Part shown: positions 26,703 through 59,249 of the stretch, piece after piece
Layout of the letters: each line of letters opens with the position of its first letter
How positions within the stretch are numbered: position 1 is the stretch's first letter
Program-made: the position numbers and the translations under genes
Assembly: GCA_027485855.1 (NCBI GenBank)
Contig: JAIXQD010000019.1
Coordinates: 146,256 to 210,255 of the forward strand
Direction of reading: 5' to 3'
Source: Rickettsiales bacterium
GTDB lineage: Bacteria; Pseudomonadota; Alphaproteobacteria; G027485855
DNA: 64,000 nucleotides
The notes under the pieces: generated by a model
The model's database searches: none
The model's input: the letters and a program-made list of their open reading frames with translations, nothing else
What the model was told of the DNA's origin: nothing

Positions 26703-26705
26703 CGC

Positions 26706-28340: not shown

Positions 28341-28439
28341 ATTGACTCTCCGCTCCACCAAAACCCCGAACCCCCGAAAGAAGCCCCAAAGAAACCCACT
28401 ATAAAACGCACCACAAAGCGCACCATAAAGTTCTGCGGC

Positions 28440-29501: not shown

Positions 29502-29731
29502 GACCACTCCGGCAAAATGTAAAACGCTGTCGCTTGCAAGCACCAGTAAAAGCTGATTCGTGCATGAAAGCAGTTAATATATTGTTTTGACAGAACAGTG
29601 GCTGCCAGACAATGGCTAAAAGCCTTTAGCCCCGATACAGATGTCGCTCGTGACTTAACTGCACCATGCAGCGGGCAAAACCGGCAATCAGAGAGCTGGC
29701 CAGAAAACTGCCCGCAAAAAAGCCGCACAGT

Positions 29732-30004
29732 TTATTTTGCCTGATAATCATACCACCTGCGGATTCTTTGGTGCCGGTGTGCTGGTCGTCGTGCGCCCAA
29801 AAGCCGGCGTCGCACAGCCCGCCATGCGGCATCATAAGCAAGACCGTTTCGCTCGAATAAATAAAATAACAAAGTGCAGAGGCACGCAAAAATAAGAGTG
29901 TAAAGCCTTAAATGCAAAACCAGCAGCAAAAACGGCACGGCTGCGCGCGCATCAAAGCCCAAAAAGCGCACCGGTTTCATACTGTTGCGCCAATGAACAT
30001 CCAT
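29732..30004 (-). CDS. icmT: IcmT/TraK-family small membrane protein
   Basis: 90 aa: HWRNSMKPVRFLGFDARAAVPFLLLVLHLRLYTLIF...FERNGL. This matches the IcmT pattern. Located directly after dotB. Confidence 0.72.
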   Translation of the reverse strand: MDVHWRNSMKPVRFLGFDARAAVPFLLLVLHLRLYTLIFACLCTLLFYLFERNGLAYDAAWRAVRRRLLGARRPAHRHQRIRRWYDYQAK

Positions 30005-31179: not shown

Positions 31180-32072
31180 CGCTCGCTCCGCGTGTTGAAT
31201 TGTGGCTGACCCGTGATGGTCACAGCGCGATCACCCACACGCATTTCAGTGCCATCACCCGACACGCCGCGCTCTTCTAACAGCGCAAAAGGCTCGCTAA
31301 TCATGCCTTGCTGCAATAATTCGCGGTAACGCACCATGCCGACAAAGTCGGCGGTCAAGCGGTCGAGATCGGCTTGAAAAACCTCATCGGCCTGAGTGCG
31401 GCCAGCTTCCCAGCCTTGGCGCAGATATTTTTGCCAAAGAATTTTTTCCTCGGCATTTTTGGGCAGCAATAAATCGGGCGGCGGCAAAACCTTACCCCAA
31501 TCGCGCTCTAAATAGAGACGCCAATCACGGGCGGCCGTGACAATACGCGCTTGCCGATTAATTTTAAGCACGCGCTCGGCCGTGGCTGCCGCTTGCCCGC
31601 CCGCTGTGACTAACACGGCACGCTGCGCCTCACTTACTACGGGCGGCTCAATGAGCAAGCCAGATGGCGCTTGCACCAAAAGCTGCCGAAAATCGAAGGT
31701 GCGGCTGAGCGCGCTATCTTGCTCGGCTAAGCGGCGCTGAATTTCGAAGGTGCGCAACGCCAAGCCAGCCCGTGCGCCATAAGATAAAGCGGCCTCGCGC
31801 AGGCCATCGGTGCGGATTTGCAAACCCATAGTGTTGCCAATCGTGCTTTCATCGGTGCCGCGGCGCTCAAGATTAAGCATATCAACCAGCGCAGGCGGTG
31901 GCGGTGAAGGCTCAACCACATTGGGCGTATCAAGAACATCTTGTGCCTGTGCCACCATGGGCGCGGCAAACAGTAAAGCCGCCAGCAGCAGCGCCAGAAT
32001 AGTTGGCTGCAGTTTTTTAGAGGCTGTTTTTGGCAACATAGCGAATTTCAATAGCATTGCGGTTGGGGTCAA
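31155..32072 (-). CDS. dotC: DotC/TraI(IncI)-family outer-membrane-associated protein
   Basis: About 300 aa with a signal peptide (LLAALLFAAPMVAQA). The call rests on size and its position between dotD and dotB. The true start is probably an internal Met (32057 or 32039). Confidence 0.7.
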   Translation of the reverse strand: MTPTAMLLKFAMLPKTASKKLQPTILALLLAALLFAAPMVAQAQDVLDTPNVVEPSPPPPALVDMLNLERRGTDESTIGNTMGLQIRTDGLREAALSYGARAGLALRTFEIQRRLAEQDSALSRTFDFRQLLVQAPSGLLIEPPVVSEAQRAVLVTAGGQAAATAERVLKINRQARIVTAARDWRLYLERDWGKVLPPPDLLLPKNAEEKILWQKYLRQGWEAGRTQADEVFQADLDRLTADFVGMVRYRELLQQGMISEPFALLEERGVSGDGTEMRVGDRAVTITGQPQFNTRSERWLPAPQQ

Positions 32073-35839: not shown

Positions 35840-38137
35840 TTAGCCTCCTGGTCTTGTTGGCGCTGCGGGTGCTGCAGCCGGACAGCTTGCCCGAACAATA
35901 TCCTCAATCTCGCGGGTGTAGCGCCCCTGACAGGCCGATGACCACCCACCTGTTGCCGCAGAGCAATACCCACCCCGCGAACGATACAATGCCCGCAATT
36001 GCGATTCAATGTCCATTGAGCGCCAATTGGGGTTTTCGCGCTCAAATTTGCTGAGCAAGGCGCCAACATTACCATGCTGCACGCCAATTGACCACATGGC
36101 CTGCTGCACACGAATATCATTCATATCCCAGCCACCCTGCCGGCGGAAATTATTAACGGCGTTACCGTAATTAACCCGCCTGATATATTCGTGCTGCATT
36201 TCGGCAAAATTGGGGTCGTTGATAGATTTCCATGCATTTTCAAAGGCGCGCCACGTTGTGGGGGTTGAGCCACGGCCATTATTGGGCGGCAAGAGCGGCT
36301 CAAGCCTTTGCCGAACCGGTGAATTGGCCGGAAGGCCCCGCACAAAAGCATGTACACTGCCCGCGGCGCCAGCCAATTGATAGCTCCCAAAAGACTTGCC
36401 GCCACGATCGCGCAAAGCCGCAGCATCGGAATTGACCGAGTTTGGATTGCCGTTCGATTCATAGCGAGCGGTAATCGTGCCAAGGCGGCATGCATCAATA
36501 GGTAAGCCACTGCCACTGCCCGGCCCCGTGAAGAAATCAAAGCCCTCGGGCACGCGCGCCAAAGCACCCAAAGCAAAATCGATATATTCGACATCAGCCA
36601 TCACGCCATTTTCGTCGGGCACATCAAAGACCGAGCCATAGCCTTTAGGCAAAGGCCGCTGCACGGGCTGTGCCCCCGCAGGTAAAACGGGATGCGGAAT
36701 ACGTTTTTTATCGGCCGACATCAGCGTGGCCTCAAGCAGCATGATTTGTTCAATCAGCTGGTTTTTGCGCCATTTAAGCTGATTAAGCGTGCCGAGGCTT
36801 TGATTGATATAACGCAATTTCACTGTGTCCGGCGCGGACGACGCGGCAATGTGCCACCTTGTGCTGAAACGCTCAGAAAACATCAATTCCATAATTTTAT
36901 GCTCGGACAACATCACATTATCCGGAATGGTATAGCCGGCTTCTTTCATCATGCCGCGCCCCCAAGTGAGAATACCCTCGGTGCTGCCGGCTTGGGGTGC
37001 CACCGGCATACGGCGCGCAATAATTTGCTGGCAGGTATAAAAAGCCAGCTGATTGCTGGCCTGCCAGCCACGCAATTTCATCAGATAGACCGGATTGGCG
37101 TTGGCTAAATTACCGCGCACCGGATCAAGCACGGTGGGCAGTACCACATTATCGCAATAAGCTTTGGCGGCCGCGCGCGCCCAGTCAGGCTGCTCGCCCG
37201 CCGCTTGCTGGCGCAAACGCAAAATATCATGCACCAGAATGGAGCGCGGATTTATATCCATATCGGGCAAAGCACCATTGATTTCTTTTGCATCAGCGCC
37301 ACGACAGCGCGGGTCTTGCGGGTTGGTGCTTTTACAATCTTGGAAAGAATGCATGCGGTCTTCGAAGCGCTTATTCACATCGGCCAACATGCCACGCGCT
37401 GCGGCAATTTCGCGCGCGGGCTGGCTAGAGCTAGATTGACCAGAGCTAGTTTGGCCAGAGCGAGACTGGCCTGCGGCGGGTGCTGCACCTGCCGGAGCTG
37501 CGGCCACTGCCGAAGCTGGATTTGCGCTAGCTGGGTTTGCAGATGCGCCACCCACTCTGCTAACGCCGCCACTATTGCCGCCACTATTGCCGCCACCCAG
37601 CGAGGCCGCCACTTGCTGCATACGCTCGGCGCTACTATCTTGCGTGCGATTAAGCAAACGATCTTCGGCTGACGCTGCCAGCAACGCTGCTTGCATTACG
37701 GTATTAGTTTCAACGGCGGCTAAATCGCGCTGGCCAGAGGCCACAACACAGCCTTGCCGACCCACATCGGGTGCAAATTTTTCGGCCACATCCATTTTGG
37801 CGCGGCGCTGTAAATTTTCGTATTTATTTTGAATTTCGGCGTTGGCAATTTTGCCCTTAACTTGTGCGCGCAATTGCTCGGCGGTGATATCGGCCGTAGC
37901 ACCCGCGCTTTTTAGATATTGCATTAAAGCCGCAAACACCGTTTGCAATATGGTGGCAACGCCGCCAATAGCCACACCGGTTGCCGCCATGGGAGCTGCG
38001 GCCGCATTACATTCGGCTTCAGCGGGGGGACATTGTACAACAGCCATCGACGCACGCACTGGCACAAGCACCAGCACGCCCGCCAAAATCATATGGCGAG
38101 TAAGCCTCATAATATTAAGCTTACGGCTTGATTGCAC
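35840..38137 (-). CDS. Paralogue A: shared N-domain plus a C-terminal lysozyme/SLT-superfamily-like domain
   Basis: GTG start with AAGGAG 5 nt upstream. Has a signal peptide, then a hydrophobic segment. The N-domain is very similar (by eye) to paralogue B. The C-terminal tail of about 221 aa (35843-36505) has ARYESNGNPNSVNS...GGKSFGSYQL, which resembles the E-S...N-P...G..G..Q pattern of SLT/VgrG3-type muramidases. Confidence 0.75.
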   Translation of the reverse strand: MQSSRKLNIMRLTRHMILAGVLVLVPVRASMAVVQCPPAEAECNAAAAPMAATGVAIGGVATILQTVFAALMQYLKSAGATADITAEQLRAQVKGKIANAEIQNKYENLQRRAKMDVAEKFAPDVGRQGCVVASGQRDLAAVETNTVMQAALLAASAEDRLLNRTQDSSAERMQQVAASLGGGNSGGNSGGVSRVGGASANPASANPASAVAAAPAGAAPAAGQSRSGQTSSGQSSSSQPAREIAAARGMLADVNKRFEDRMHSFQDCKSTNPQDPRCRGADAKEINGALPDMDINPRSILVHDILRLRQQAAGEQPDWARAAAKAYCDNVVLPTVLDPVRGNLANANPVYLMKLRGWQASNQLAFYTCQQIIARRMPVAPQAGSTEGILTWGRGMMKEAGYTIPDNVMLSEHKIMELMFSERFSTRWHIAASSAPDTVKLRYINQSLGTLNQLKWRKNQLIEQIMLLEATLMSADKKRIPHPVLPAGAQPVQRPLPKGYGSVFDVPDENGVMADVEYIDFALGALARVPEGFDFFTGPGSGSGLPIDACRLGTITARYESNGNPNSVNSDAAALRDRGGKSFGSYQLAGAAGSVHAFVRGLPANSPVRQRLEPLLPPNNGRGSTPTTWRAFENAWKSINDPNFAEMQHEYIRRVNYGNAVNNFRRQGGWDMNDIRVQQAMWSIGVQHGNVGALLSKFERENPNWRSMDIESQLRALYRSRGGYCSAATGGWSSACQGRYTREIEDIVRASCPAAAPAAPTRPGG

Positions 38138-38555: not shown

Positions 38556-40541
38556 CTACCCACGGGGCCGATAAATTTGTGTGGCACCACCAAACCTGTT
38601 AAAATAGCCATTACGTGCCAAGCCCACATTGGCACCGCGCCCATTATTATTATAGGCCAGCGTGCAGCCCACATTGGCGCAAATGCCCACATGGCTATAC
38701 ATACGGCCGCCCACCACACCACGTATCATCACAATATCGCCGGGCTGCGCTTGTCCGGGGCTGACGCGTGTGCCACCGCCACTTTGTAAATAATTCTGCA
38801 TGCCGGCCACGCTGAGCGTGCCACCGGGAGGAATCATGCTGCGCCCCGATGCGGCCAGCAAATAATTGACATATTGGGCGCAGCCAAGGTTGCCCGTATA
38901 GGCAGGGCCGCACACCACCGCACCATTACGGCCGCTGGTGCAGTTAGTCGCATCGGCATAGCCACCCGGAATGGGCCGCCCCACTAAAGATTGCGCAAGC
39001 GCCATAAGATCGTTGCTGACAACTTGAATGCCAGATAGGCCGCCGCCGCCCTCGGCAACATCGCCGCCCGTGCCATCAAAATCAATATTATCGCCTTGCA
39101 GTTCGGCAAAAGAGGCTTCGGCTAAATCAAAATCGACATAGCGCACATCGTCGTTCACGCCATCCGCATTGACATCTAAATCAAGAATCTCGCCAACACC
39201 CGTGGGCAGCGGTAAGCTGGTGGGAGTTGCACCTGGCGCTAATTGTGGCAGTGGTATTTTGTTTTTATCGCTGGATAAAATGCTCGCTTCGAGCAGGCCA
39301 AGTTGCTCAAGCAGTTCGTGCTTGCGCCATTTCAGCTGATTATAAGTGCCAAATGTTTGGCTGATATAACGCAGTTTTACACTGTCAGGGGCGCTGGCGG
39401 CGGCGATATTCCAGCTGGTGCTGAAGCGCTCACGAAACAGCAATTCCATAATTTTATGCTCGGACAACACAGCATCGGCCGGAATATCATAGCCAAATTC
39501 TTGCATCAGCGCCTTGCCCCAGTTCAGCGGGCTTGCAGCATTGCCGCCCGCTTCGGCCGAAATGGGCATGCGCCGTGCGGCAATCTGCGCGCAAACATGC
39601 CCCGCCAGCTGTTTGGCCGCCTGCCAGCCGCGCAGTTTCATCATGTAAACCGGATTGGCGTTGGCCAAATTGCCCCGCACCGGATCCAGCGTGACGGGCA
39701 ATATCACATTTTCGCAATAGGTGAGCGCGGCCAGCTTGGCCCAATCGGGCTCGCTTGGGTTTTGATAGCGCAGGCGCAAAATATCGTGCGTTAAAATAGT
39801 GCGCGGCATAATATCAAAATCGGCCAAGGCACCATCGGTGCATTCAGTGTTTTTGGGGTCGGTGTTTTTACAATTTTGGAAATTGAGCATGCGTTTTTCA
39901 AAGCGCTCATTCACATCGGCCAGCATGCCACGCGCGGCGGCCACCTCGGCGCAGGCACTGTCATTATCGGCTGCCGCCGGAATATCAAGCCCCAATAAAC
40001 GAGCCGTTTGGCGCAAGCGCTCATGCGCCGAGCCGCAATCACGATTAACCAGGCGGTCTTCGACCGCAGCTTCAATCGGCACGGCTTGCAGCGCCGAGTT
40101 ATTTTCGGCCGCCATCAGCGCTTGCTGACCCGAGGCCGCAACACAGCTTTGCCGGCCAACATCCGGCGTGAAATTTTGCGCAACCTGCATTTTGGCTTCG
40201 CGCTGCATGTTTTCGTAACTTGCCTGATTTTCGGCATTGGCGATTTTTGCACTGACTTGCGCACTGAGCTGCTGCGCCGATACTTCGGCCGTGCTGCCCG
40301 CGCTTTCTAAAAACTGCATAATAGCCACAAAGGCTGCTTGAATGGCTGTGGCCACCGCAGTCAAAGCGCCACCCACAGCAACAGTGGGTGCAATGGCCGC
40401 AGCACAACCAGGGCAAGTATCCATCGCGGCGCTGGCCTGTGCGGCGCGCGGCGGCAGGGCCAGCCCCACCACCAACAGCAACGCCATCACGCCAAAACGG
40501 CAGCGCGCCATACGAGTACCTGCGCCAGCAAGAGACAGCAT
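38556..40541 (-). CDS. Paralogue B: shared N-domain plus a C-terminal CHAP/NlpC-P60-like domain
   Basis: ATG at 40541 has AAGGAGG 8 nt upstream. The ORF-track start at 40712 would overlap paralogue C. The C-terminal 150 aa (38559-39008) has GCAQYVNYLL (Cys nucleophile context) and GDIVMIRG...YSHVGIC (His), which is a CHAP/NlpC-P60 arrangement. Confidence 0.75.
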   Translation of the reverse strand: MLSLAGAGTRMARCRFGVMALLLVVGLALPPRAAQASAAMDTCPGCAAAIAPTVAVGGALTAVATAIQAAFVAIMQFLESAGSTAEVSAQQLSAQVSAKIANAENQASYENMQREAKMQVAQNFTPDVGRQSCVAASGQQALMAAENNSALQAVPIEAAVEDRLVNRDCGSAHERLRQTARLLGLDIPAAADNDSACAEVAAARGMLADVNERFEKRMLNFQNCKNTDPKNTECTDGALADFDIMPRTILTHDILRLRYQNPSEPDWAKLAALTYCENVILPVTLDPVRGNLANANPVYMMKLRGWQAAKQLAGHVCAQIAARRMPISAEAGGNAASPLNWGKALMQEFGYDIPADAVLSEHKIMELLFRERFSTSWNIAAASAPDSVKLRYISQTFGTYNQLKWRKHELLEQLGLLEASILSSDKNKIPLPQLAPGATPTSLPLPTGVGEILDLDVNADGVNDDVRYVDFDLAEASFAELQGDNIDFDGTGGDVAEGGGGLSGIQVVSNDLMALAQSLVGRPIPGGYADATNCTSGRNGAVVCGPAYTGNLGCAQYVNYLLAASGRSMIPPGGTLSVAGMQNYLQSGGGTRVSPGQAQPGDIVMIRGVVGGRMYSHVGICANVGCTLAYNNNGRGANVGLARNGYFNRFGGATQIYRPRG

Positions 40542-40560
40542 TGATAAGTGCCTCCTTTGC

Positions 40561-41820
40561 TTATTTTTCCCACGGCGCTTTCGCCGATGTGGGCGTGGCA
40601 CCCGCGGGCAAGACCGGCGGATTATCCTGCAACACAGCCGAAAGCTGCGCTGCACGCAACATAGCCAAACGCTCGAGCATTTCATATTCGCGCCACTCTT
40701 GCTGCGAGACAAACGCCAAAGACTGGTTGATAGAGGTCAGCATGTCTTTCGGTTCGCTATTGGCGTAAAAGGCCACATCCTTGAAAATATCGTAGTAAAG
40801 CGTGCGCAAAATATCTTGCTCTGAAGCATTTTCCGGCACGGTGCGGCCAACACGGGCGGCAATGGTTTTGCCCCATTCAAGCCTGCTGGTATCAACTGGT
40901 GCGCCACCGCGCGTCACTTCGTTGGCGGGCGTGCGCGTGGTCATTATGTCAAGGCAGACGAGATCGACCAAGCTGAGGCGCGCATCCACACCACGACGCT
41001 GCATGTGATAGACCCGACCTTGCGGGCTATTCAGCAACTGGCCCGTGACGGGATCAGGCACAACGGGGTCTTTGATGTGGCTACAAAAAAGCTGAGCTGC
41101 GCCCACATGGCCATCATCGCCCGAGCCCAAATTATCGGACAGCAGAATATCGGCGCGAATATCGGTGTTTCTCTTGTTGGGGTCATCTTGGCAGCGTGGA
41201 TTTTTGGGGTCAACCTGATCGCAATCAAGATAGCCGCCCTTGGCCAAAGCGACCACACTGGCCGACGCATCGGCCTGCGTGCCGCGCTGGGCGGGGCCTG
41301 CAGCATTAGTGCTGCGCTTTAATGCATTGCCACGAGCCACACTGGCTAAAAAGCGCGTATTGGCTGCCGCTGCTGTTGCCGCTTGCGCACCCGATGCGCG
41401 CACGCACGCATCTTTATTGGTGGATGGGGCATATTGCTGCGCCACCCGCATTTTGGCTTCGCGCTGCAGATTTTCAAAATCATTCTGAATTTTGGCATTG
41501 GCTATTTTAGCGTCAATTTGTGCTTGCAACTGCACCGCCGAAACTTTGGCCGTGCTGCCCGCGCTGGTGATAAAACTGAGCATCAGCTGCATAGCAGTGA
41601 TAGCGGCAGTTAACACGCCTGTGACCGCAGCACCAACAGCCGTAACCGCGCCCACCAACGCTTGCGCTTGTGCCACTTGCGGCGTGCCAAACAACAAAGC
41701 ACCCGCCAGCAACAAAGTGGCCGCGCCCCTGCCTAAAGACCCCAAGGGATTTTTTCGCGGATTTTTTTGCGGATTTTGCCGCCGATTTTGCCCCGCGCTA
41801 TTTTGCATAAGCTGGTGCAT
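40561..41820 (-). CDS. Paralogue C: the shared N-domain only, with no enzymatic tail
   Basis: 419 aa. Aligns by eye with A and B: SAGSTAKVSAVQLQAQIDAKIANAKIQNDFENLQREAKMRVAQ matches SAG[AS]TA[DE][IV][ST]A[EQ]QL..QV..KIANAE.QN.YEN[LM]QR.AKM.VA. Ends just after the shared LPAGATP junction. Confidence 0.7.
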   Translation of the reverse strand: MHQLMQNSAGQNRRQNPQKNPRKNPLGSLGRGAATLLLAGALLFGTPQVAQAQALVGAVTAVGAAVTGVLTAAITAMQLMLSFITSAGSTAKVSAVQLQAQIDAKIANAKIQNDFENLQREAKMRVAQQYAPSTNKDACVRASGAQAATAAAANTRFLASVARGNALKRSTNAAGPAQRGTQADASASVVALAKGGYLDCDQVDPKNPRCQDDPNKRNTDIRADILLSDNLGSGDDGHVGAAQLFCSHIKDPVVPDPVTGQLLNSPQGRVYHMQRRGVDARLSLVDLVCLDIMTTRTPANEVTRGGAPVDTSRLEWGKTIAARVGRTVPENASEQDILRTLYYDIFKDVAFYANSEPKDMLTSINQSLAFVSQQEWREYEMLERLAMLRAAQLSAVLQDNPPVLPAGATPTSAKAPWEK

Positions 41821-42890
41821 TAGTTACCCCCTCGCGGCGCAAAGGGCGAGGTTATACCCGGCACCCGTGTTGTGCCTATCTCCTTATCGGTATCTCTCGT
41901 GCGGAACTGGAAGGTCACGCCACGCGAAGGCATATTGGCATTGCGTGCTTCAAGGCTGCGTGGGTCCATAATATCTTGTGCCGAAAGATCGACGCCAAAA
42001 ATGCGCGCCCCACGGAACAGGCCGCTAATATCGCCGCCATCACGCAGCGGCGCCCAGCCATCACAGAAACCACCATGCACATTACCGAGCTGATTAAGGT
42101 CAGGGCCGATATTGAGAAAATCTAACCCAGGAATGCAAATTGAATTGGCGATAAAATCAACCGCCATTTGAAGGGCCTGACAGGCCGCATTAATGACCGC
42201 ATCAATGATTTGTTTGAAAATCATATCGGCCAGCGCGCGCACTAAACCCAGCGGGTCGCTCAAAATTTTAATGAGGTCGAAAGCCGCAAACATTTTCACG
42301 AGGCAAAAGCGGTCTTCGATTTTTCGGGGGCCCTCGCCTAAGGCGTTCATATTGGCCGCCAAGGCGTTGGTGGCTTGCGCTTCGCTGCCGGCGACAATGG
42401 CATCTTGAATAGGGTCTAAGCAATCTTCGGTGGACATGGCTTTTGCAGCGGCATTGCCATAATCGGTTGCGGCCTTATTGGCTTTATCGCTGCCAGGCAC
42501 ACCTGGCACTGGCCCCGAACCTGTCATTTGTGCGGCAGCTTTATCAAGCGCGCTGCTCAGCTCTTTGGGGTTGGTTACTTCGCTGGCTGTTGGCACGGGC
42601 GATGGGTCGGGGTCGGTTGTGCCCGTATTGCCGCCCGTATTGCCACCCGTGTTACCAGTTGTGGTAATATTTGCCGTACCGCGCGAATTACCGGTTGTTA
42701 TGCCATCAGCAATAAAAGGCGGCTCATCCGCAGGATTCACCGGAACCCGCGGATTAGATATAACTGGCGCTGCAGGTGCGGCAACGCCGCCACCAATCAC
42801 TCGGTCTGGTGTGGCAATAGCAGGCGAGATCCCAAATACAAATAACGCGCAGAGCAACGCAAAGGTCAGAATAAATGAGCGTAGCAACAT
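41820..42890 (-). CDS. Secreted ORFan with a G/N/T-rich linker and a Cys-containing helical C-domain
   Basis: Start chosen at MLLRSFILTFALLCALFVFG (GGAGAGG RBS). Its stop overlaps the paralogue C start (TAATG). Confidence 0.55.
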   Translation of the reverse strand: MLLRSFILTFALLCALFVFGISPAIATPDRVIGGGVAAPAAPVISNPRVPVNPADEPPFIADGITTGNSRGTANITTTGNTGGNTGGNTGTTDPDPSPVPTASEVTNPKELSSALDKAAAQMTGSGPVPGVPGSDKANKAATDYGNAAAKAMSTEDCLDPIQDAIVAGSEAQATNALAANMNALGEGPRKIEDRFCLVKMFAAFDLIKILSDPLGLVRALADMIFKQIIDAVINAACQALQMAVDFIANSICIPGLDFLNIGPDLNQLGNVHGGFCDGWAPLRDGGDISGLFRGARIFGVDLSAQDIMDPRSLEARNANMPSRGVTFQFRTRDTDKEIGTTRVPGITSPFAPRGGN

Positions 42891-43025
42891 GGGCCTCTCC
42901 CGATTCTTCACACGATTCTTCACACAATTATTCATTGGCGCGCGAAATTTAAACATTTAGCCTTACATTTATGGCTGATTATGCTTAAAGCAACCTTAAT
43001 TGTTTTGCAGCCGTTTTTATACAGC

Positions 43026-46693: not shown

Positions 46694-46771
46694 AAATTGG
46701 CAGCAGAAATTGGCACCAGTCTTGCACATTCATTTTTAACGGCGCGTAAAAACAACAGAACAGGGTTTACA

Positions 46772-48202
46772 ATGCTCGATATCATCTCTTTGCTTAGCTC
46801 TAACTTTGGCACGGCGACCAAGCCCGAAAAGGCCCGCGAGCGCAGCGAAGATTTTGACGCCCTCTTAGCCCGCGATAGCAAAACCGAGCCCAAGCGTGAT
46901 GTCGCCCGCAATGACATAAGCCCAGACAAAGCCCGCAGCAAAAATATTACAGCGCAAAGCGAGCGTGACGACACGAATGTAAAAGATACACCCGCCGCCA
47001 CCGATGCTGCCGATGCGCCAAAACAAGCCGCGGCAGAAAATGCCGAGCCCGATCAAGAAAAAAACCAAGATGCACCAGCGCAAGATGCGGCGCAAACGGC
47101 CAAAACAGACAACAACCCTTCCGATAAGCCCAAAGCTGCCGATGATGCTGTAGCTTTGGCGCAACCCTTGCTGCCGCCGACTTTGTCGGAGGACAGTAAG
47201 GCAACATCGTCTGCCTTCCCTCAGGTGGACGATGTTGCCGTAACACTTGCGGCCACCACCAGCACCGCCCCCACCAGCGATGCCGCAGCGGACGCCGCAA
47301 CCTTAGCCGCACAAACCGCGCTTGCGGCAGCGGCCACGAAAGACACCGCCAAAGCCGAGGGCGAAAAGCCCAGCGGCAAAGCGCTGGCCGAAAAAACTGC
47401 AACCATTGTTAATACGCAAAGCAAAGCTGTGGCCGCACTTTTAGGCGATGGCGAAGAGAAAAACACCGATAAGCTGAGTGCCGGCAACAAAAAAGACGGC
47501 GAAACAAAAACCGAGCAACGCGCCAGCCCCAATGCGCTGGCACAATTGCAGCCGCAAACACCACCCCCACCACCGCCACAAAATAACGATGCGGCACAAA
47601 TACAGCTTCAACAAGCAATGCAGCCAAAAGCCGAGCTGCAAAAAATGCAAGCGGCCAACAATGCTGCGCCCGAGCATAAGCCACAGCTGACAGTAACCGA
47701 GGCACAAAAGCCGCAGCTTTATGAGCAAACCAGCCAGCTTTCGGGCGCAACACGTGCAGGAAGGCCCGCCCAACTCCCGCATATTCCTGAACAAGTGGCC
47801 GTGGCCTTGCATAAAGCTATCCGCAATGGCGAGGACACGCTCACCTTGCAGTTAAAGCCTGCCGATCTTGGCAAGATTGAAGTGAAGCTCGAATTTGCCG
47901 CCGATGGCCGCGTGCGCGCCACGGTTATGGCCGACAATGCCGTGACACTTGATATGATGCAAAAAGATGCACGCGGTCTTGAGCGCGCCTTGCAAGAGGC
48001 CGGCCTGCGCACCGATGCGGGCTCGCTCTCATTTAATTTGCGCGAGCAAAATCAGCGGCAAACACAAAATGACGGCGATGACAGCCGTGCTGGCTTTGGC
48101 AGATTTAGCACCGGCAATGATAATATTGACGATGGCGCGGCCGAGCTTGCGCATATAGCAACACGCTATGTGGCCCCTGGCCGCATTGATGTACAAGTAT
48201 AG
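46772..48202 (+). CDS. fliK: Hook-length control protein FliK-like
   Basis: Has an Ala/Pro/Lys-rich central region and a C-terminal Flg_hook-type block, LQLKPADLGKIEVKLEFAADGRVRATVMADN. The start is uncertain (TTG 46697 or ATG 46772). Confidence 0.7.
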   Translation: MLDIISLLSSNFGTATKPEKARERSEDFDALLARDSKTEPKRDVARNDISPDKARSKNITAQSERDDTNVKDTPAATDAADAPKQAAAENAEPDQEKNQDAPAQDAAQTAKTDNNPSDKPKAADDAVALAQPLLPPTLSEDSKATSSAFPQVDDVAVTLAATTSTAPTSDAAADAATLAAQTALAAAATKDTAKAEGEKPSGKALAEKTATIVNTQSKAVAALLGDGEEKNTDKLSAGNKKDGETKTEQRASPNALAQLQPQTPPPPPPQNNDAAQIQLQQAMQPKAELQKMQAANNAAPEHKPQLTVTEAQKPQLYEQTSQLSGATRAGRPAQLPHIPEQVAVALHKAIRNGEDTLTLQLKPADLGKIEVKLEFAADGRVRATVMADNAVTLDMMQKDARGLERALQEAGLRTDAGSLSFNLREQNQRQTQNDGDDSRAGFGRFSTGNDNIDDGAAELAHIATRYVAPGRIDVQV

Positions 48203-48211
48203 GAGAGCAGC

Positions 48212-48925
48212 ATGGATCTAAACACAATCAGCAATAATGTGCTTATGGCAAAAAACACTGCCAATAAAGCGCAGCCACAAACGCTTGATACCAGCAGCAA
48301 CACCAAGGATACGCTGAGTAAGCTCAATGCGAATTTTGACTTTTTTCTGAAGATGCTGACCACACAATTACAATATCAGGATCCAACCTCGCCCGCCGAC
48401 CCCAGCGAATTCACCAAGCAATTGGTGCAATATAGCGGCGTTGAGCAACAGGTTTCGACCAATAAAAAACTTGATCAGCTCCTCAGCAAACTTGGCAATA
48501 GCGATGCTGGGGCGTTATTGGGCTATCTGGGCCGCAATGTTGAACTGAGCGGCAGCAGCTTGCCGCTGCAAAATGGCGAAGCGGCCTTCAAATATAAACT
48601 CACCGATGTTGCCAAAGATATAAGTGTCAATGTCACCGACGAAAATGGCATTTTGGTGCGCAGTTTTATTGGCAATAAAGCCGCCGGCACCCATGAAGTA
48701 AAATGGGATGGCAAAGATGATGATGGCCAGCCCATGCCCGATGGTCTTTATAAGCTGCAAATCACCGCCCGCGACAGCAAAGGCCAGATTATGGAGACCA
48801 CACCATCGATTTATGGGCGCGTGACGGGCGTTGAGAATGGCGCCAGCGGCAGCGTGCTTGAAATTATGCGCGGCCTTACCACCACCGGCGATAAGGTGCT
48901 GAGCATTCGTGAGCGCAGCGTATAA
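48212..48925 (+). CDS. flgD: Hook capping/assembly protein FlgD
   Basis: Has NFDFFLKMLTTQLQYQDPTSP and FTKQLVQYSGVEQQ, plus a FlgD Ig-like C-domain. Confidence 0.92.
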   Translation: MDLNTISNNVLMAKNTANKAQPQTLDTSSNTKDTLSKLNANFDFFLKMLTTQLQYQDPTSPADPSEFTKQLVQYSGVEQQVSTNKKLDQLLSKLGNSDAGALLGYLGRNVELSGSSLPLQNGEAAFKYKLTDVAKDISVNVTDENGILVRSFIGNKAAGTHEVKWDGKDDDGQPMPDGLYKLQITARDSKGQIMETTPSIYGRVTGVENGASGSVLEIMRGLTTTGDKVLSIRERSV

Positions 48926-52928: not shown

Positions 52929-53447
52929 TTAGCGATGATACCCAATAAGCGGGCGGGCCATCATGGGTGCGCTCAACAAAGCCCGACGAATGGCGGCATG
53001 ATCGGCCGCAAGGCGGTTGCCCTCGGCATCGTGCAGGGCATGATGCACCGGATTGCCGCTATGCTGAAAATAATCATGCAGTTTTTGTGCATCAATTTTG
53101 TCGCGCACATTACAGCCGCGAATATTTTGTGGCGCCGACTTACCAACCACGCTGCAAAACAAAATCCAATCGCCCTCATAATCCCAGCAGATATAAATTT
53201 TGTCGGCGGCGAATTGCTGCAACCAGCTATTAAGGCGCTGGGTTAGCTCGTCTTTATTGGCGCAAGCTGCGCCCGGTATTTTGCCCAAAAGCGGCAGCAC
53301 TGTCTCTCTAACAAAGGGGCTGCAATCTTCAGGGTTTACCGGAAGCTCGGCATAAAATTTATGTTGCCCGCACTCGCTGAGCACCCCAAGGCTTATCAGC
53401 TTTTGGAAGGTGAAATCGCTAAATTCGGTATCGATAAACATCAGCAT
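52929..53447 (-). CDS. DEDDh-type 3'-5' exonuclease-like protein
   Basis: Has FIDTEF (ExoI-like) and HHALHDAEGN (H-x4-D ExoIII-like). Confidence 0.55.
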   Translation of the reverse strand: MLMFIDTEFSDFTFQKLISLGVLSECGQHKFYAELPVNPEDCSPFVRETVLPLLGKIPGAACANKDELTQRLNSWLQQFAADKIYICWDYEGDWILFCSVVGKSAPQNIRGCNVRDKIDAQKLHDYFQHSGNPVHHALHDAEGNRLAADHAAIRRALLSAPMMARPLIGYHR

Positions 53448-53596: not shown

Positions 53597-53630
53597 CAAA
53601 AAAAAGAGCCGCCCATTGCGGGGCGGCTCA
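53597..53630 (-). terminator. Rho-independent terminator of the giant repeat-protein gene
   Basis: On the minus strand: GAGCCGCCC-cgcaat-GGGCGGCTC followed by T8. Confidence 0.75.
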
Positions 53631-53683: not shown

Positions 53684-56600
53684 TTACCAACCGAAGATAT
53701 TCCAATTAAACCCAGTGTTTGTGTTGGTGTTGCTATTGGAATTGCTGACATTGACGTTGGTGTTATCACCTACGACCGTGTTGCTGTTGGTGTTGGTATT
53801 GCTGACATTGACGTTGGTGTTGCCACCCACGACCGTGTTGCTGTTGCTGTTAGTATTGTTAACGGTGTTGATATTGGAGTTCGTATTGCTATTGGTATTC
53901 GAGCTCGTACTGGTGTTCGAGTTGGTGTTCGTGTTGGTGTTGGTGTTGGTATTCGTATTCATGGGCACGCAAGCGCTGCTGGTGATTTCCCAGTCGCTAT
54001 TGTTACCACACTGACCGCCACGATTGACCACACGCTGCTCAGTCACGCTGCCAACCATACCGTTGGGGCAGGCGCCAAAGCCAGAGCGGGCGCGCACTTC
54101 AGTGCTTTGCACGCAAACCGGTGCGCAAGTGTTGCTGGTCACCGTCCAGTTGCCATTCACGCCACACTGATTGCCCACATTGGTGCTGCGGGTTTCAGTG
54201 ATGGTGCCAGCCTGACCCGAAGGGCAAGGCGTGCTGTTGCGTGTTTCGCTCCCTTCGTTGCAAATCTGCGCGCAGGTGTTGCTGGTGACAGCCCACTCGC
54301 CATTGACACCGCACTGGTTATTGACATTAACCGTGCGACGCTCGCTGATGGTGCCAGCCTGACCAGACGGACATTGCGTGCTGTTGCGGTTTTCGTTGGC
54401 CTGTGCACAGACAATGGGGAAGCGCACATCATCGCAATCACGCTCATTGAAAGCGTTGTTGCCGCAGATGCTATAGCCGCAACCAGCCACATGGACCGAG
54501 ATGGCGACATTGCGTGACTGACCATTATACAAACCATTCAGCGCATTGCTACCAAAGGGGTTGGCCGGGCAATAGCTGGGGCTGTTTGGCGTACGCGTGA
54601 CATCGGTGCTGGTAGTGGGGCCTCTGCCGCCTTCAACAACCAGCAGAACACCCGTGCTGGTAGGCGTGCCTGTGCTTACGGTGTAAGGCGCGGGCTGACC
54701 ACCAAAGACCAGGTCATCGCACGCTGTTTCATTAACCAATGCTAGCGATGTGCCTTGTGGGCCTTCGGCAGATTGTGATGAATGCGGCTCAGCCCAGGCC
54801 ACGCGGTTGGTGACGCAGATTGTGTATGCACAGCCATTGCCACCGCTGCTTACTGCATCAGTTTTGTTGGCGCCTTTCCACAAGCCATTCCAATAGGCAA
54901 GCGGGAATTCGGTCAAAGCTGGTGCGTTGGCAATGATACCGCCGACATTAAAGGGATCGGCGCTGCAATAAGCAGGGTTGTTGTTTGCAGGAACAATCGA
55001 AGCGCCTGTCACCTGACCGCGGTTGCCCGTGATGGTTACAGTGACTGTACCATTATTGCCGGTGGGTGTGCCAACATCAATACCAAGCGGCACGGCCACA
55101 ATAATGGGGGTGCAGGTGTTGGCTGTGACTGTCCACTCACCATTCACGTTGCACTGATTACCCACATTAGTCGTGCGCGTTTCAGTGATGGTGCCAGACT
55201 GACCTGATGGGCAAGGCGTGCTGGTGCGTGTTTCGCTGCCTTGGGTGCAAACCGGGGCGCAGGTGTTGCTGACCACGGCCCACTCACCATTGACGTTGCA
55301 CTGGTTATTAACATTAACCGTACGACGTTCAGTGATGGTGCCAGCCTGACCAGACGGACATTGCGTGCTGGTGCGATCTTCTGTGGCTTGTGCACAGCTA
55401 ATCGGGAAGGTGACTTGGTCGCAATCCGTCTCATCAAATGCGGTGCTGCCGCAAATGTTGTAACTGCACCCGGCGACATGCATCCACACAGGGATATTGC
55501 GTGATTGGCCGTTATACAAACCGTTCAGCGCCGTGCTGCCAAATGGATCGGCGGGGCAATAGCTGGGACTGTTGGGCACGCGTGATACAGCGGTGCTGGT
55601 GGTGGGGCCTCTGCCGCCGCCAACAGTAACCGGAACATTGCTACCCGTGGGTGTGCCAACATCGACCGAGTAAGGCACAGGTGCCGGTGGGAATGCTAAT
55701 GGCCCGCATGATTGCTCGCCCGCATCATTGCTGACACAAACGGCATACACGCAACCCGCAAGGCCGCCAACTGTTGAACTGCTATTCACCGTGGTGCAGA
55801 CACCATTGTTACAATTGGTGCTGGTGGTGTTGATAACCTGCACTGGCGTATTCACAGTCAATGTGCGGCTTTGGTCTTTCCACAGGCCATTCAATGCATT
55901 CAAGGGGAATGGGTTGAATGGGCAAGTGCTGGGGCTATCGCTACGCAGCGCATAAGAGCTGTTGGTAACGGGGCCAATGTCGCCTTTCACATTAAAGGGT
56001 ACCGTTGAACCAGGCTGATAACCGCTGGGTGTGCCCACAGTCAGTCGCAGCGGATCGGTTGGCACGGGGGTGCAAGTGTTGCTCACCGGCGTCCAAGCGC
56101 TGTTGACACCACATTGCGAACCAACATTGGTGGTACGACGCTCGGTCACAGTGCCTTGCTGGCCTGCGGGGCAAGCATCGGTGCGCACGCGCTCTTCGCT
56201 GCCTTCACGGCAAGTTCTGGCGGTGAGCAAATTATCGCAGGCGCGCTCTTGGGCGGTGTTGGTCACGCACACCCAGTAGTTACATGTGCCGATATTCGCA
56301 TTAAGGTTGGTGACACGGCTGGCGCCATTCCACAGACCTTGCAAGGCGCTGGTCGCACCATTGACAAAGGGCTCGGCGGGGCAATCGGCAGGCTCACCAA
56401 AGAAGCGCTCAACCGTAGCTGAGGTCACTGGGTTACGGCCACCGCCAACAGTGGCGGGCACTGTGCGGCCGCTGCCATTATCGTTGGTGGGTGTACCCAG
56501 GTCTAAAGTGAGCGGTGCGGGCGAACCAGGGAAGGACAGCGTATCGCAATCTTCCTGATTTTGGGCGTTGGTGACGCAGGTGCGATAGACGCAGCCGGCC

Positions 56601-58525
56601 AGATTGCCAACCACATTATTTTGACTGCTGGTCACAGTCACTTCACGCTGCTGACCATTCCACAGACCATTCAGCACATTGCTGGCCAATGGGCTGCTGG
56701 CGCAATAAGCCGGATTGCTGCCTGAAGGCACAAAGGTGGCGTTTGTCACAGGGCCATCGCCACCGGTCACGGTGACTGGCACGCGTGCCCCTGGCGTGTT
56801 GCCTGTGGGGGTGCCAACAGTCAGCCTCAGTGGCACTGACACGATGGGTGTGCAAGTGCTGCTGACAATGGACCAAGCGCTATTGACGTTGCACTGGTTG
56901 CCCACATTAAGCGTGCGGCGCTCGGTGATGGTGCCAGTGGTGCCTGCTGCGCAGGGCGTGCTGGTACGATCTTCGGTGCTCTCGGTGCAGATGGGGGCGC
57001 AAGTATTGCTGACCACGGCCCAGTTACCATTGGTGCCGCAGACATTACCAACATTGGTGGTGCGACGCTCGGTGATGGTGCCAGCCTGACCCGTGGGGCA
57101 AGGCGTGCTGGTGCGGTTTTCAGTGCCTTCGGTGCAGACGGGGGCGCAAGTGTTGCTCACCACCGACCAGTTACCATTGGTGCCGCAGACATTACCAACA
57201 TTGATGGTGCGGGTTTCAGTAATGGTGCCAGCCTGACCCGATGGGCAAGGCGTGCTGGTGCGGGTTTGAGTATCTTCGACGCATGCGGGCGGGATGGGCG
57301 CGCAAGTGTTGCTGACCACGGCCCAATCACCATTGACGCCACACACAGTGCCAACATTGGTGGTGCGACGCTCGGTGATGGTGCCTTGCTGACCCGATGG
57401 GCAAGGTGTGCTGGTGCGATCTTCAGTGCCTTCAGTGCAGGCATTGGGGAAACGCAGCGTATCGCAAGCGCTTTCATTGACGCCATTGGTCACGCAAACG
57501 CGCCAAGCGCAATTGGGCTTATTGGTCGAGGCATAGGGGCGTGTTTGGCCAAACCACAAACCATTCAGCGAGGCATTGCCGCTATTGGGGTTGGCAACAT
57601 CGGTATTGCTGCCTTGCGTAAACAAGCTGAGCGTACCGCAATTGCTGGGGTTGTTGTTAATGGGCGTAATCACCGCATTGGTGACCGGCCAGCGATTGCC
57701 GCCAACGATAAAATCAAAGTTGCGGCGGCCTGTGTCGGTTGAGGTTGACGGGCCAGTGATGGTGAGTGTCAAAGGCTGCTGCGGTGAGCAGGTGCTGCCA
57801 GCGAATGTCCATGGGCCGTTAACGCCGCAAACATTGCCAACGCTTGTTGTACGACGCTCGATGACATTGCCGGTTTGACCTTGTGGGCAAGCGCCGATAT
57901 TGCGCGTTTCTTCGTCTTCGACGCATGAGGGCGGAATGGGCGCGCAAGTGTTGCTGACTACCGTCCAAGCGCTGTTCACGCCGCAAACAGTGCCAACATT
58001 AAGGGTGCGACGCTCAGTGATGACACCATTTTCGCCTTGTGGGCATGGTGTTGAGGTGCGGTCTTCGGTGCTGACGGTGCAAGCGTTGCAGCTGCCGGTT
58101 TCGCTGGTCAGCAGCCAGACGCCGCCATCGCAGCTATAATTTGCGGTAAAGCCGTTATTGGTGCCACCACGCAGCGTGGCAAGCTGACCTTTGGCGCCAC
58201 GGGGCAAGGTTTGTGGTGCGCCGCAAATTTGGGTTGTGGCTGAAACGCAGCAAAAATCAACGGTGGTGCCAGCGGGTTGATTATTTTTGAAGGCGTTGAA
58301 ATCATCGGTGGAACCAAAGGACATGGTCAAAAAGCGGGTGCCCGAGCTATTGGTGATAGTGATGCAAGCTTCTCTTGGGCCTTGTGGGTTGCCTGTGCCG
58401 GCCGGACGCTCGCCGACCCAGTTGCGATTGACATAAACAGGAACTCCGTTGCTCTGCGCATAAGCTGTGCCGGCTGTACACAGCACCAAAACAACACTCA
58501 GAGCCTTGAGAATTTGCTTAATCAT
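53684..58525 (-). CDS. 1613-aa secreted repeat protein: 12 four-Cys modules, 8 larger repeat domains and an Asn/Thr-rich tail
   Basis: Has the signal peptide MIKQILKALSVVLVLCTAGTAYA. The module consensus is C.EGTEDRTSTPCPSGQAGTITERRTTNVGN.CG.NG.W.VVSNTC.P. The C-terminus ends in GFNWNIFGW. Confidence 0.85.
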   Translation of the reverse strand: MIKQILKALSVVLVLCTAGTAYAQSNGVPVYVNRNWVGERPAGTGNPQGPREACITITNSSGTRFLTMSFGSTDDFNAFKNNQPAGTTVDFCCVSATTQICGAPQTLPRGAKGQLATLRGGTNNGFTANYSCDGGVWLLTSETGSCNACTVSTEDRTSTPCPQGENGVITERRTLNVGTVCGVNSAWTVVSNTCAPIPPSCVEDEETRNIGACPQGQTGNVIERRTTSVGNVCGVNGPWTFAGSTCSPQQPLTLTITGPSTSTDTGRRNFDFIVGGNRWPVTNAVITPINNNPSNCGTLSLFTQGSNTDVANPNSGNASLNGLWFGQTRPYASTNKPNCAWRVCVTNGVNESACDTLRFPNACTEGTEDRTSTPCPSGQQGTITERRTTNVGTVCGVNGDWAVVSNTCAPIPPACVEDTQTRTSTPCPSGQAGTITETRTINVGNVCGTNGNWSVVSNTCAPVCTEGTENRTSTPCPTGQAGTITERRTTNVGNVCGTNGNWAVVSNTCAPICTESTEDRTSTPCAAGTTGTITERRTLNVGNQCNVNSAWSIVSSTCTPIVSVPLRLTVGTPTGNTPGARVPVTVTGGDGPVTNATFVPSGSNPAYCASSPLASNVLNGLWNGQQREVTVTSSQNNVVGNLAGCVYRTCVTNAQNQEDCDTLSFPGSPAPLTLDLGTPTNDNGSGRTVPATVGGGRNPVTSATVERFFGEPADCPAEPFVNGATSALQGLWNGASRVTNLNANIGTCNYWVCVTNTAQERACDNLLTARTCREGSEERVRTDACPAGQQGTVTERRTTNVGSQCGVNSAWTPVSNTCTPVPTDPLRLTVGTPSGYQPGSTVPFNVKGDIGPVTNSSYALRSDSPSTCPFNPFPLNALNGLWKDQSRTLTVNTPVQVINTTSTNCNNGVCTTVNSSSTVGGLAGCVYAVCVSNDAGEQSCGPLAFPPAPVPYSVDVGTPTGSNVPVTVGGGRGPTTSTAVSRVPNSPSYCPADPFGSTALNGLYNGQSRNIPVWMHVAGCSYNICGSTAFDETDCDQVTFPISCAQATEDRTSTQCPSGQAGTITERRTVNVNNQCNVNGEWAVVSNTCAPVCTQGSETRTSTPCPSGQSGTITETRTTNVGNQCNVNGEWTVTANTCTPIIVAVPLGIDVGTPTGNNGTVTVTITGNRGQVTGASIVPANNNPAYCSADPFNVGGIIANAPALTEFPLAYWNGLWKGANKTDAVSSGGNGCAYTICVTNRVAWAEPHSSQSAEGPQGTSLALVNETACDDLVFGGQPAPYTVSTGTPTSTGVLLVVEGGRGPTTSTDVTRTPNSPSYCPANPFGSNALNGLYNGQSRNVAISVHVAGCGYSICGNNAFNERDCDDVRFPIVCAQANENRNSTQCPSGQAGTISERRTVNVNNQCGVNGEWAVTSNTCAQICNEGSETRNSTPCPSGQAGTITETRSTNVGNQCGVNGNWTVTSNTCAPVCVQSTEVRARSGFGACPNGMVGSVTEQRVVNRGGQCGNNSDWEITSSACVPMNTNTNTNTNTNTNSNTSTSSNTNSNTNSNINTVNNTNSNSNTVVGGNTNVNVSNTNTNSNTVVGDNTNVNVSNSNSNTNTNTGFNWNIFGW
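53687..53959 (-). repeat. Coding imperfect hexanucleotide (AAC-ACC/AGC)n microsatellite plus a tandem duplication of about 60 nt
   Basis: Encodes NTNTNTNTNTNSNTSTSSNTNSNTNSN...NSNTVVGGNTNVNVSNTN / NSNTVVGDNTNVNVSNSN. Confidence 0.8.
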
Positions 58526-58970
58526 TTTTATGTCCTTTGCAACATTGGGTTATATTTTTAAGGGCCATACGCTTCAATTACCTAAAACAAGGGGGGGCTA
58601 AATATACCAGCCCTTGCAATGCGCATAGCTCTGCCAAAAAAATGGCCACACGGGGTTTTATACACTATTTTTCCGGAAGTGTAATACTTTCGTGTGGGGA
58701 CGTTATAAAAAAGTGCAAGACCCTGCAATTTTGGCATGAATGAACCCAATAAGCCGAAGATTGGTCGGAAATAATCGTCCTATCTTTGACAGCAACGCAT
58801 TAAAGAGGCGTAAATTAAAGCCATGCGGCGGCTTTTTGCTAAAAATTGCGCAATTATGGTTAATGGCGCTTAATTTATATTGCCCCCAACGCGTCCGGCC
58901 AAGAACGATTACACCTAAGAGCCTTTTGTTTTTTGCAAAAATTTTGGACTGTTTCTGTTATGATGTTTGT

Positions 58971-59249
58971 ATGTTTTATTTAATTATACTTGGCATTGCC
59001 GTTATGCTGGCGTGGGCAGAGGCTAAAGACTCTTATCGCAATCCGTGGCTGCATGCTGGTATGGCGCTGCTGTTTCCGCCCTTATGTTTTATTGTTTTTT
59101 TATTGCCGCGTCTGTCGCCGCCTGCTCCTGCTGTTTTGCCGCAAGATAATGACTATCCCGCGCAAGCAGTGCCGCTGTTTCAAACGCAGTTAGCCAGCGG
59201 CGCGTTAGCCGTGACCACGCCTCAATCTCGCAATAACCAAAATGCTTAA
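58971..59249 (+). CDS. Small two-TM membrane protein (start uncertain)
   Basis: MFYLIILGIAVMLAWAE...LLFPPLCFIVFLLP. The upstream part of the 169-aa ORF-track model looks non-coding. Confidence 0.35.
   Translation: MFYLIILGIAVMLAWAEAKDSYRNPWLHAGMALLFPPLCFIVFLLPRLSPPAPAVLPQDNDYPAQAVPLFQTQLASGALAVTTPQSRNNQNA

Follow-up and report, generated by a model that had tools for sequence, protein, structure and literature searches.

Two undescribed domain families in a candidate surface fibre of an uncultured alphaproteobacterium, one of them apparently widespread and linked to type IV filaments

The DNA considered here, referred to as the window, is a stretch of 64,000 nucleotides from an uncultured alphaproteobacterium, and its minus strand carries at 53684..58525 an open reading frame (ORF) of 1613 aa plus a stop codon. 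The product is built from two repeated, Cys-containing domains, a small module that we call S and a larger domain that we call L, and from sequence comparison these appear to represent two undescribed families joined in one candidate surface fibre, with S being widespread and linked to type IV filaments. With moderate confidence, and by analogy with relatives that carry the same module, we propose that the protein is an oxidatively folded, elongated fibre that stands on the cell surface or is released, and that serves in adhesion or recognition. An initial annotation of this DNA had delineated the same frame and described a secreted protein, and a disulfide-rich extracytoplasmic protein is the natural reading of the Sec signal together with the Cys content.

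A rule on Cys spacing finds exactly twelve S modules in the ORF, each of about 46 aa with four Cys, and the count given in the initial annotation therefore stands. Each copy scores 66–87 bits against a profile of the twelve (domain E-values of 8e-22 to 3e-28), the mean pairwise identity among them is 62%, and the twelve-copy repeat is far above chance. Rule and profile both support each of the following, which like the other features of this gene are on the minus strand: S1 (aa 149–194, 57944..58081), S2 (aa 201–246, 57788..57925), S3 (aa 363–408, 57302..57439), S4 (aa 415–460, 57146..57283), S5 (aa 464–509, 56999..57136), S6 (aa 513–558, 56852..56989), S7 (aa 772–818, 56072..56212), S8 (aa 1044–1089, 55259..55396), S9 (aa 1093–1138, 55112..55249), S10 (aa 1373–1418, 54272..54409), S11 (aa 1422–1467, 54125..54262) and the most divergent copy, S12 (aa 1471–1519, 53969..54115). 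Modules in tandem are separated by Pro-containing linkers of 3–6 residues (APV, API, AQI, APIPPS, APIPPA).

The L domains, of about 100–135 aa, number seven as placed by a profile of the seven, and a six-frame scan of the window finds the twelve S and seven L solely within the ORF 53684..58525. They are L1 (aa 247–362, 57440..57787), L2 (aa 559–664, 56534..56851), L3 (aa 665–771, 56213..56533), L4 (aa 819–944, 55694..56071), which has an inserted loop with two extra Cys, L5 (aa 945–1043, 55397..55693), L6 (aa 1139–1273, 54707..55111), which has two insertions, and L7 (aa 1274–1372, 54410..54706). The copies are 32–67% identical to each other and have four conserved Cys. A large domain type thus does recur as first described, but there are seven copies and not eight, and they alternate irregularly with S: the order is signal peptide, head, S0, SS, L, SSSS, LL, S, LL, SS, LL, SSS, tail.

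The N terminus, MIKQILKALSVVLVLCTAGTAYA/QS (here and below a slash marks the cleavage site), is by inspection of the Sec/signal peptidase I type, as had been noted at the outset, and the signal peptide (aa 1–23, 58457..58525) has two Lys, a hydrophobic core and the cleavage motif AYA/Q. A lipoprotein was considered and ruled out, as there is no lipobox (the sequence is VLC with Leu at position -1). The signal peptide is followed by a head (aa 24–100, 58226..58456; NRNW ... F.AF.NN.PAG ... C), defined by alignment with Sec-type relatives, and by S0 (aa 101–146, 58088..58225), a degenerate, thirteenth module identified with jackhmmer that may cap the first array. At the other end is a low-complexity tail (aa 1520–1613, 53687..53968) in which 36 of the 94 residues are N, 21 are T and 13 are S, and the DNA of which has tandem repeats (a 6-nt unit 8 times, a 57-nt unit 2.4 times). 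Of the Cys residues in the mature chain, which total 84 and are thus even in number, S accounts for 48, L for 30 and the N-terminal region for 6, and Cys makes up 5.3% of the protein. The composition of the mature protein (53684–58456) is otherwise also extreme, with 14.4% T, 11.7% N, 10.6% G, and 0.4% Lys vs 4.5% Arg.

Purifying selection on the repeat copies marks the ORF as a real and selectively maintained coding gene. Between the most similar S copies the ratio of nonsynonymous to synonymous differences (pN/pS) is about 0.2–0.4 (dN/dS 0.18–0.40), and a segmental duplication that relates L5-S8-S9 (aa 945–1138) to L7-S10-S11 (aa 1274–1467) has 75% aa identity and a dN/dS of 0.22. Selection on the copies together with the scores from the hidden Markov models rules out a chance or non-coding ORF. 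The copies are old duplicates, with a DNA identity between them of at most 81%, and since they are both old and under purifying selection, misassembly of the repeats is unlikely and we rule out an assembly artefact.

Signals for expression flank the gene. A Shine-Dalgarno-like AAGGA (58533..58537) is situated 7 nt 5' of the ATG, and upstream is a region of 445 bp (58526..58970) with 40.7% GC vs 54.7% in the whole window, which agrees with the AT-richer stretch seen initially and which we presume to hold the gene's own promoter. A scan of 58526–58970 for the sigma-70 consensus found no site, an outcome that is uninformative. The intrinsic terminator previously described as strong is found at 53629..53606, a hairpin with a 9-bp stem of which 8 pairs are G-C, followed by T8. 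The gap to the neighbouring heparinase II/III-like gene on the same strand is 737 bp and holds an opposite-strand ORF, and therefore the gene is probably transcribed on its own. That small plus-strand ORF (58971–59249, within a longer frame 58740–59249) diverges from the gene, and its start at 58971, an internal Met, sets the limit of the 445-bp upstream region; the product from there would be about 90 aa with two hydrophobic segments, and it has no Pfam match.

The features that define S are seen best when the copies are aligned with those of other proteins. The spacing is approximately C-x11-14-C-x15-19-C-x12-16-C within about 45–57 aa, to which all twelve copies conform, and the core has the motif CP.GQ.G.I.E.R, a Trp that precedes the last strand, and SNTC at its end, all present here. 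In alignment A1 every module has C1, C13, G19 and C46, and conservation reaches 90% or more at P14, G16, R25, W39 and T45. A set of 406 complete S modules was drawn from 156 proteins, and in it 9 have fewer than four Cys and the rest four or more. The third Cys is at profile position 28 in 311 of the 406, the majority subtype, and at position 32 in 43, the subtype to which our protein belongs; because its position varies in this way, the third Cys lies in a tolerant loop.

An AlphaFold2 model of S (copy S3), built on an alignment of 35 modules, has a predicted local distance difference test score (pLDDT) of 89.5 and contains three antiparallel beta strands at residues 4–10, 21–27 and 40–44. 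If the three strands form a meander, the disulfides would join the first Cys to the third and the second to the fourth, a pairing deduced solely from strand topology. Modules that miss a pair of Cys gave no answer as to the pairing, as virtually all keep four.

Neither S nor L corresponds to a catalogued domain in the searches we made. An established repeat family to which the module would map was not found: the whole 1613-aa protein has no match in Pfam-A or NCBIfam at E≤10, neither S nor L has a match in PHROGs at E≤0.001, and nothing significant emerged from PDB sequences with the whole protein, the S profile or the L profile. The best of the PDB sequence matches, CNNM4 with an E-value of 1.7 and a phage sheath protein with one of 0.19, were judged to be due to chance. 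A Foldseek search of the S model against the PDB returned 48 matches at E≤10, the best with an E-value of 1.1, by a method that is weak for 46-residue domains. A literature search found no paper describing the repeat.

The module has many relatives. A word-indexed search with the whole protein found seven; an exhaustive HMMER search of 1.84 billion representatives, for which 35 S modules were combined in a profile, retrieved 731 clusters with E≤1e-3, of which 321 reach E≤1e-10 and 45 reach E≤1e-30. The clusters are defined at 50% identity, and the family comprises at least 731 of them. Judged from these matches, S is an uncatalogued bacterial family, and the notion that the module is unique to this protein falls with this check of its distribution. 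More restricted searches gave far less: with a narrow alignment (A4) a metagenome scan found 7 loci, with L in none, and a scan of genome representatives one locus only, and tblastn of the protein against annotated plasmids and phages gave no match.

The association with type IV filaments comes from the other members of the family. Among the 155 whose leaders were examined, 79 have a class III pilin leader, 54 have a Sec-like leader and 22 are fragments, unclear or other. In those with a pilin leader the first S begins at a median position of aa 214, right behind the pilin head, and in about half of the members examined 3–10 S modules directly follow a type IV pilin head. Of 50 members scanned with Pfam, 17 have a PilS head and 10 a Bundlin head, and in all 50 S falls outside every Pfam family. 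NCBIfam likewise has no entry for it, and a few members of the family bear Big_9 or cadherin-like domains. Relatives have at most 10 modules each, with a median of 4, compared with the 12 here. The S0 segment has jackhmmer matches (E 2e-19 to 2e-9) to the segment ahead of the S arrays in pilins of one type (P0052; the P numbers denote individual relatives). Because the arrays directly follow the pilin head, we infer that in these fusions S is what a type IV filament would keep on the outside of the cell.

The genetic settings of these relatives vary. One (P0006) adjoins pilMNO and another (P0022) lies in a MobA/TraD mobile-element setting. P0054 (WP_265127525.1, Xanthomonas chitinilytica) is annotated solely as a 'T2SS GspH family protein', and on a plasmid of Xanthobacter dioxanivorans the end of a Tad operon has a 'TadG-related' gene (WP_203197089.1), the product of which has a pilin-like N terminus, three diverged S modules and a Gly-rich C-terminal domain. 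These GspH family and TadG-related annotations are single cases beside the PilS and Bundlin heads.

The L domain presents a different picture. AlphaFold2 predicts for copy L2, with a pLDDT of 81.4, six strands in an Ig-like beta sandwich, and Foldseek with this model retrieved solely Ig-like, PKD, FN3 and FlaF-type sandwiches, all weakly (E≥0.03; query TM-scores 0.3–0.57), with no match at E≤0.001 in the PDB and a viral library. The L profile has no match among 5.8 billion clusters at the sensitivity of that method, the whole protein, when scanned against metagenome contigs, gave no relative, and L is absent from loci L001–L017 (loci are designated with three digits). In the searches made, L is thus an apparent orphan with no detectable relative.

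Closer relatives of the whole gene can be recognized by their surroundings. In the window RsmB and Rpe are followed by a heparinase II/III-like gene (PF07940; 59263–60975, on the strand of the S-module gene) and then by the S-module gene. At each of the six loci that could be read (the window, L001, L003, L009, L019 and L020) a heparinase-like gene adjoins the S-module gene on the same strand. It comes before the S-module gene in five, including L020 (P0025), where it is truncated and upstream, and at L009 (P0007) the order is S-module gene, heparinase-like gene, PurH. The sequence Rpe, heparinase-like, S-module gene recurs at L001 (P0001), at L003 (P0002), the 1.64-Mb chromosome OZ251993.1 of an alphaproteobacterial metagenome-assembled genome, and at L019 (P0008). 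Compared with the window proteins, Rpe is 35–53%, RsmB 42% and the heparinase-like protein 30–35% identical. The lineages are thus far apart, and the S-module genes at these loci are positional orthologues with shuffled interiors.

These orthologues have ends in common. The Sec leader and head (about 70 aa) are shared by our protein with P0002, P0025, P0008 and P0007 and more loosely with P0001 and P0010, and by BLASTP aa 4–246 are 35% identical to the L003 protein. Tails rich in S, N and T are seen in our protein, P0002, P0025 and P0007; ours ends in GFNWNIFGW and P0025 in GFLNSIFKQ. Where our protein has L, the orthologues have other domains: another four-Cys module, a Gly-rich domain like Gp38, a fasciclin domain, or a C-terminal domain that is separate. 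The other four-Cys module, of about 55 aa (C..PWGG....G.SV.AY......C.SE.R.C.NG.LSG.Y....C), is found in P0001, P0002, P0010 and P0025. A Gly-rich segment of the Gp38 type (a phage tail-fibre adhesin, PF05268) is assigned by precomputed Pfam annotation in P0001, P0002 and P0025 and not in P0010, and in a Pfam scan it is absent from our protein; in the scans run here neither this second module nor the Gly-rich segments had a Pfam match. The Gly-rich C-terminal domain of the Xanthobacter TadG-related protein resembles the Gly-rich segment of these orthologues; this comparison also covered L018 (8563–10434).

As to the organism, its Ffh, encoded on a 306-kb contig, is at most 68–70% identical to the nearest sequences, the named neighbours of which are labelled 'Alphaproteobacteria bacterium', with one 'Proteobacteria bacterium' and one 'Bdellovibrionales bacterium'. 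P0008 is likewise labelled 'Bdellovibrionales bacterium', and the NCBI taxonomy places the alphaproteobacterial predator Micavibrio under Bdellovibrionales, a hint, from labels only, of Micavibrio-like relatives. A 2.5-kb fragment that is 100% identical to window DNA occurs in run SRR30952575 of the Sequence Read Archive.

A plausible model for the protein can be drawn from these data. A chain with 84 paired Cys requires Sec export and periplasmic oxidation, and in this model it would be exported by Sec and then folded and oxidised in the periplasm. Since folding and oxidation have to come first, the exit through the outer membrane would plausibly be by way of a secretin-type system. By analogy with the pilin fusions, the S arrays with their short Pro-containing linkers would form stiff, disulfide-stapled spacers, and the orphan and more variable L sandwiches would be the likely ligand-binding units. 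Several points weigh against this model. The protein is not itself a pilin, and the extracellular location is carried over from the pilin fusions by analogy. The structural search with S was not significant and would offer no functional precedent. L has no homologue, so that a binding role for it is a guess from position and variability. Furthermore, no anchor or outer-membrane export device was found in the protein among beta-barrel, RTX, LPXTG, PEP-CTERM and type IX secretion system features, Pfam and NCBIfam.

The closest known design is that of the modular pilins, such as PilB and PilC of Streptococcus sanguinis, CofB, TcpB and the minor pilins of the Myxococcus Kil 'Tip' group. About half of the S family shares with them the class III leader and pilin head, followed by S and sometimes a terminal domain. 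Our protein differs in that it has a type I Sec signal and not a pilin's N terminus, and the parallel is architectural only; as a type IV pilin it was rejected, having a Sec type I signal instead of a class III leader (G/FxxxE) and no pilin head. CofB consists of a pilin module, then a beta-repeat domain, then a beta-sandwich domain (PMC8179133, PMC12075869), a layout that parallels the make-up of our protein from S repeats and L sandwiches. No significant match to S or L was found in the PDB by sequence, profile or Foldseek, CofB and TcpB included if deposited. Modules grafted onto the C terminus are displayed by minor and modular pilins, most likely at the tip of the filament (PMC8179133, PMC12075869), and many such modules are without a database signature and under-described (PMC8179133).

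A second comparison is with the giant adhesins built from Ig-like domains (Big, cadherin-like, He_PIG; LapA, SiiE, invasin/intimin), which are also very long, repetitive, beta-rich and extracellular. Giant repeat adhesins of Gram-negative bacteria are exported by type I or type V secretion systems, are typically Cys-poor and match Pfam families. Our protein, in contrast, appears to be Sec-dependent, has 5.3% Cys and lacks an RTX signal, a beta-barrel or a Pfam match. An RTX adhesin of the type I system and a type V autotransporter were both rejected, given the Sec leader, the lack of Pfam and NCBIfam matches and a C terminus that consists of the 94-aa N/T/S-rich tail.

An improbable alternative that nevertheless deserves attention is that the protein is not a cell-attached fibre and is instead a soluble factor, secreted through the secretin of a type IVb pilus or type II-like system in the manner of TcpF and CofJ. 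These two are Sec-dependent proteins without an anchor that dock on a tip of minor pilins, and the pilus machinery expels them. Our protein likewise combines a Sec signal with the lack of a recognisable anchor, its 84 Cys and folding in the periplasm would call for a secretin-type exit, and S is elsewhere tied to subunits of type IV filaments. An exporter of the required type is also encoded in the window: a type IVb pilus cluster, complete and R64/IncI-like, occupies about 18.5–29.5 kb and includes a PilV-like minor pilin. The docking of TcpF on TcpB is established (PMC9565799; summarised in PMC12075869). However, that cluster is about 24 kb away in apparently mobile DNA (with the type IV secretion system (T4SS) gene TraI and a DotB-like ATPase), and no pilus genes were present in the 7–10 kb of flanking DNA read at the positional orthologues, contig permitting. 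No sequence similarity to TcpF or CofJ and no PDB match were found, with TcpF and CofJ included if deposited, and our protein is encoded outside a pilus operon and is far larger and repetitive.

A special case of the fibre model that we consider quite unlikely as it stands is a structure for recognition of prey or host in a predatory or epibiotic, Micavibrio-like alphaproteobacterium, acting with the heparinase II/III-like protein as a partner on a surface glycan. It is consistent with the presence of the heparinase-like neighbour at all six readable Sec-type loci, in two arrangements and at the low Rpe identities given above, with the variation in domain content between orthologues (L versus the Gp38-like Gly-rich domain, fasciclin or the other Cys module), with the 'Bdellovibrionales bacterium' labels of some relatives and Ffh neighbours, and with a related genome as small as 1.64 Mb. 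On the other hand, the taxonomic hint is a label only, and the window contains no sign of a predatory lifestyle. The heparinase-like gene overlaps rpe by 4 nt at L003, and in the window 737 bp and an opposite-strand ORF separate it from the S-module gene, and therefore the adjacency may be mere inherited position. It could reflect either this or functional coupling.

It is decidedly unlikely that the protein never leaves the cell and is a structural component of the periplasm or one that spans the envelope. The signal is of Sec type only, no outer-membrane targeting feature was found, and disulfides form in the periplasm; yet a chain of about 1600 aa, with over 20 rigid modules, linkers that contain Pro and a tail of low complexity, is far longer than that compartment requires, and S is also found on pilins that are assembled into external filaments.

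The initial annotation had sensed a eukaryote-like character in the module while being unable to place it with thrombospondin type 1 repeats (TSR; its TSP1), EGF or CCP domains. The second point holds, and the first gives way to the bacterial family with its many pilin fusions described above. Like S, the TSR is a small, disulfide-stapled, three-stranded extracellular module with a conserved Trp and conserved Arg that occurs in tandem arrays, but it has six Cys, WxxWxxW and another order of motifs, whereas S has four Cys and one Trp (two in the pilin subtype); S was rejected as a member of the TSR family as it lacks the WxxWxxW/CSxTCG six-Cys pattern. Alignment with hhalign to hand-typed reference sets for TSR, EGF and CCP is a lead-level test, in which S, tandem S–S (with circular permutation allowed), S0 and L reached at most 28% probability over 13–16 columns. 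The values against EGF were 14.8% for S and 28.2% for S0 over 15–16 columns, and against CCP 0.2% and 1.6%. TSP_1 (PF00090), EGF and CCP/Sushi have no Pfam match in the protein at E≤10, and TSP_1 has none in seven homologues at E≤0.1. A horizontally acquired mimic of a host repeat is therefore very improbable: a length of about 46–50 aa, four Cys, the conserved Trp and Arg residues and an alignment in which the W..W...SNTC end of S is paired with WSxWSxW..C at the start of TSR speak for it, but that alignment has a probability of just 24.6% over 13 columns, no TSR, EGF or CCP structure is among the Foldseek matches, and most of the family members examined have bacterial pilin or Sec leaders.

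Returning to the surface or released fibre, the same observations can be extended to a broader scheme, which we offer as speculation and think rather unlikely in its full form. In this scheme S would be a building block for rods pushed out by type IV filament and secretin machines, and our protein would be a pilin-independent use of it, with its own conserved NRNW head and an N/T-rich tail, docking on the tip of a type IVb pilus or anchored in a way not yet described. It would act with the invariably adjacent heparinase II/III-like protein on host or prey surfaces, in a deep and possibly predatory or epibiotic alphaproteobacterial lineage.

Apart from such schemes, S would be an extracellular domain that recurs in many proteins, has no entry in Pfam-A or NCBIfam, and makes up most of the length of many large pilins (type IVb, GspH-like and Tad) annotated as 'hypothetical' or by their head alone. 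Such pilins are encoded by at least two cultured bacteria, Xanthomonas chitinilytica and Xanthobacter dioxanivorans. A definition of S would improve the annotation of modular pilins, which are thought to set the binding specificity of type IV filaments (PMC8179133). In our protein S appears without a pilin and joined to an orphan, predicted Ig-like domain, at a locus conserved across deeply divergent uncultured Alphaproteobacteria, and the protein is a candidate for a major surface structure in organisms of which next to nothing is known. These two domains would be additions to the known building blocks of adhesins, and no general principle is changed.

Several other features of the window were recorded, all but the flagellar genes with their strand. 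The complete R64/IncI-like type IVb pilus cluster beside T4SS genes occupies 18546–32072 on the minus strand, and comprises T4SS_TraI (31155–32072), a DotB/TraJ-like ATPase (30004–31179), a TcpQ-domain protein (28440–29543), the secretin (26706–28361), PilO (25449–26702), the pilus ATPase (22530–24458), the platform protein (21460–22536) and a PilS/Bundlin pilin of 203 aa (20694–21305), all on that strand. The cluster is probably part of an integrated conjugative element. At its end a 456-aa ORF (18546–19916, minus) has the class III pilin leader KAG/FSLVEMAIVLAV, and the C-terminal half of its product has phage tail-fibre PHROG matches (E down to 7e-32) with a Peptidase_S74 intramolecular-chaperone domain at the end. 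Its sequence suggests a fusion of a PilV-like minor pilin with a tail-fibre tip, which would itself be an unusual modular pilin.

Elsewhere, a 765-aa ORF (35840–38137, minus) has a C-terminal domain like that of VgrG3 of the type VI secretion system (E 1.5e-19). It is flanked by large ORFs, of which 38556–40712 and 40561–41820 have no Pfam or PHROG match and 41820–42956 has no match in PHROGs, the one database scanned with it. Just past the terminator of the S-module gene is a 172-aa ORF (52929–53447, minus) with an RNase H PHROG match (E 1.6e-18) and no Pfam match. The window also contains the flagellar hook genes FliK (46697–48202) and FlgD (48212–48925), and therefore the organism is probably motile.

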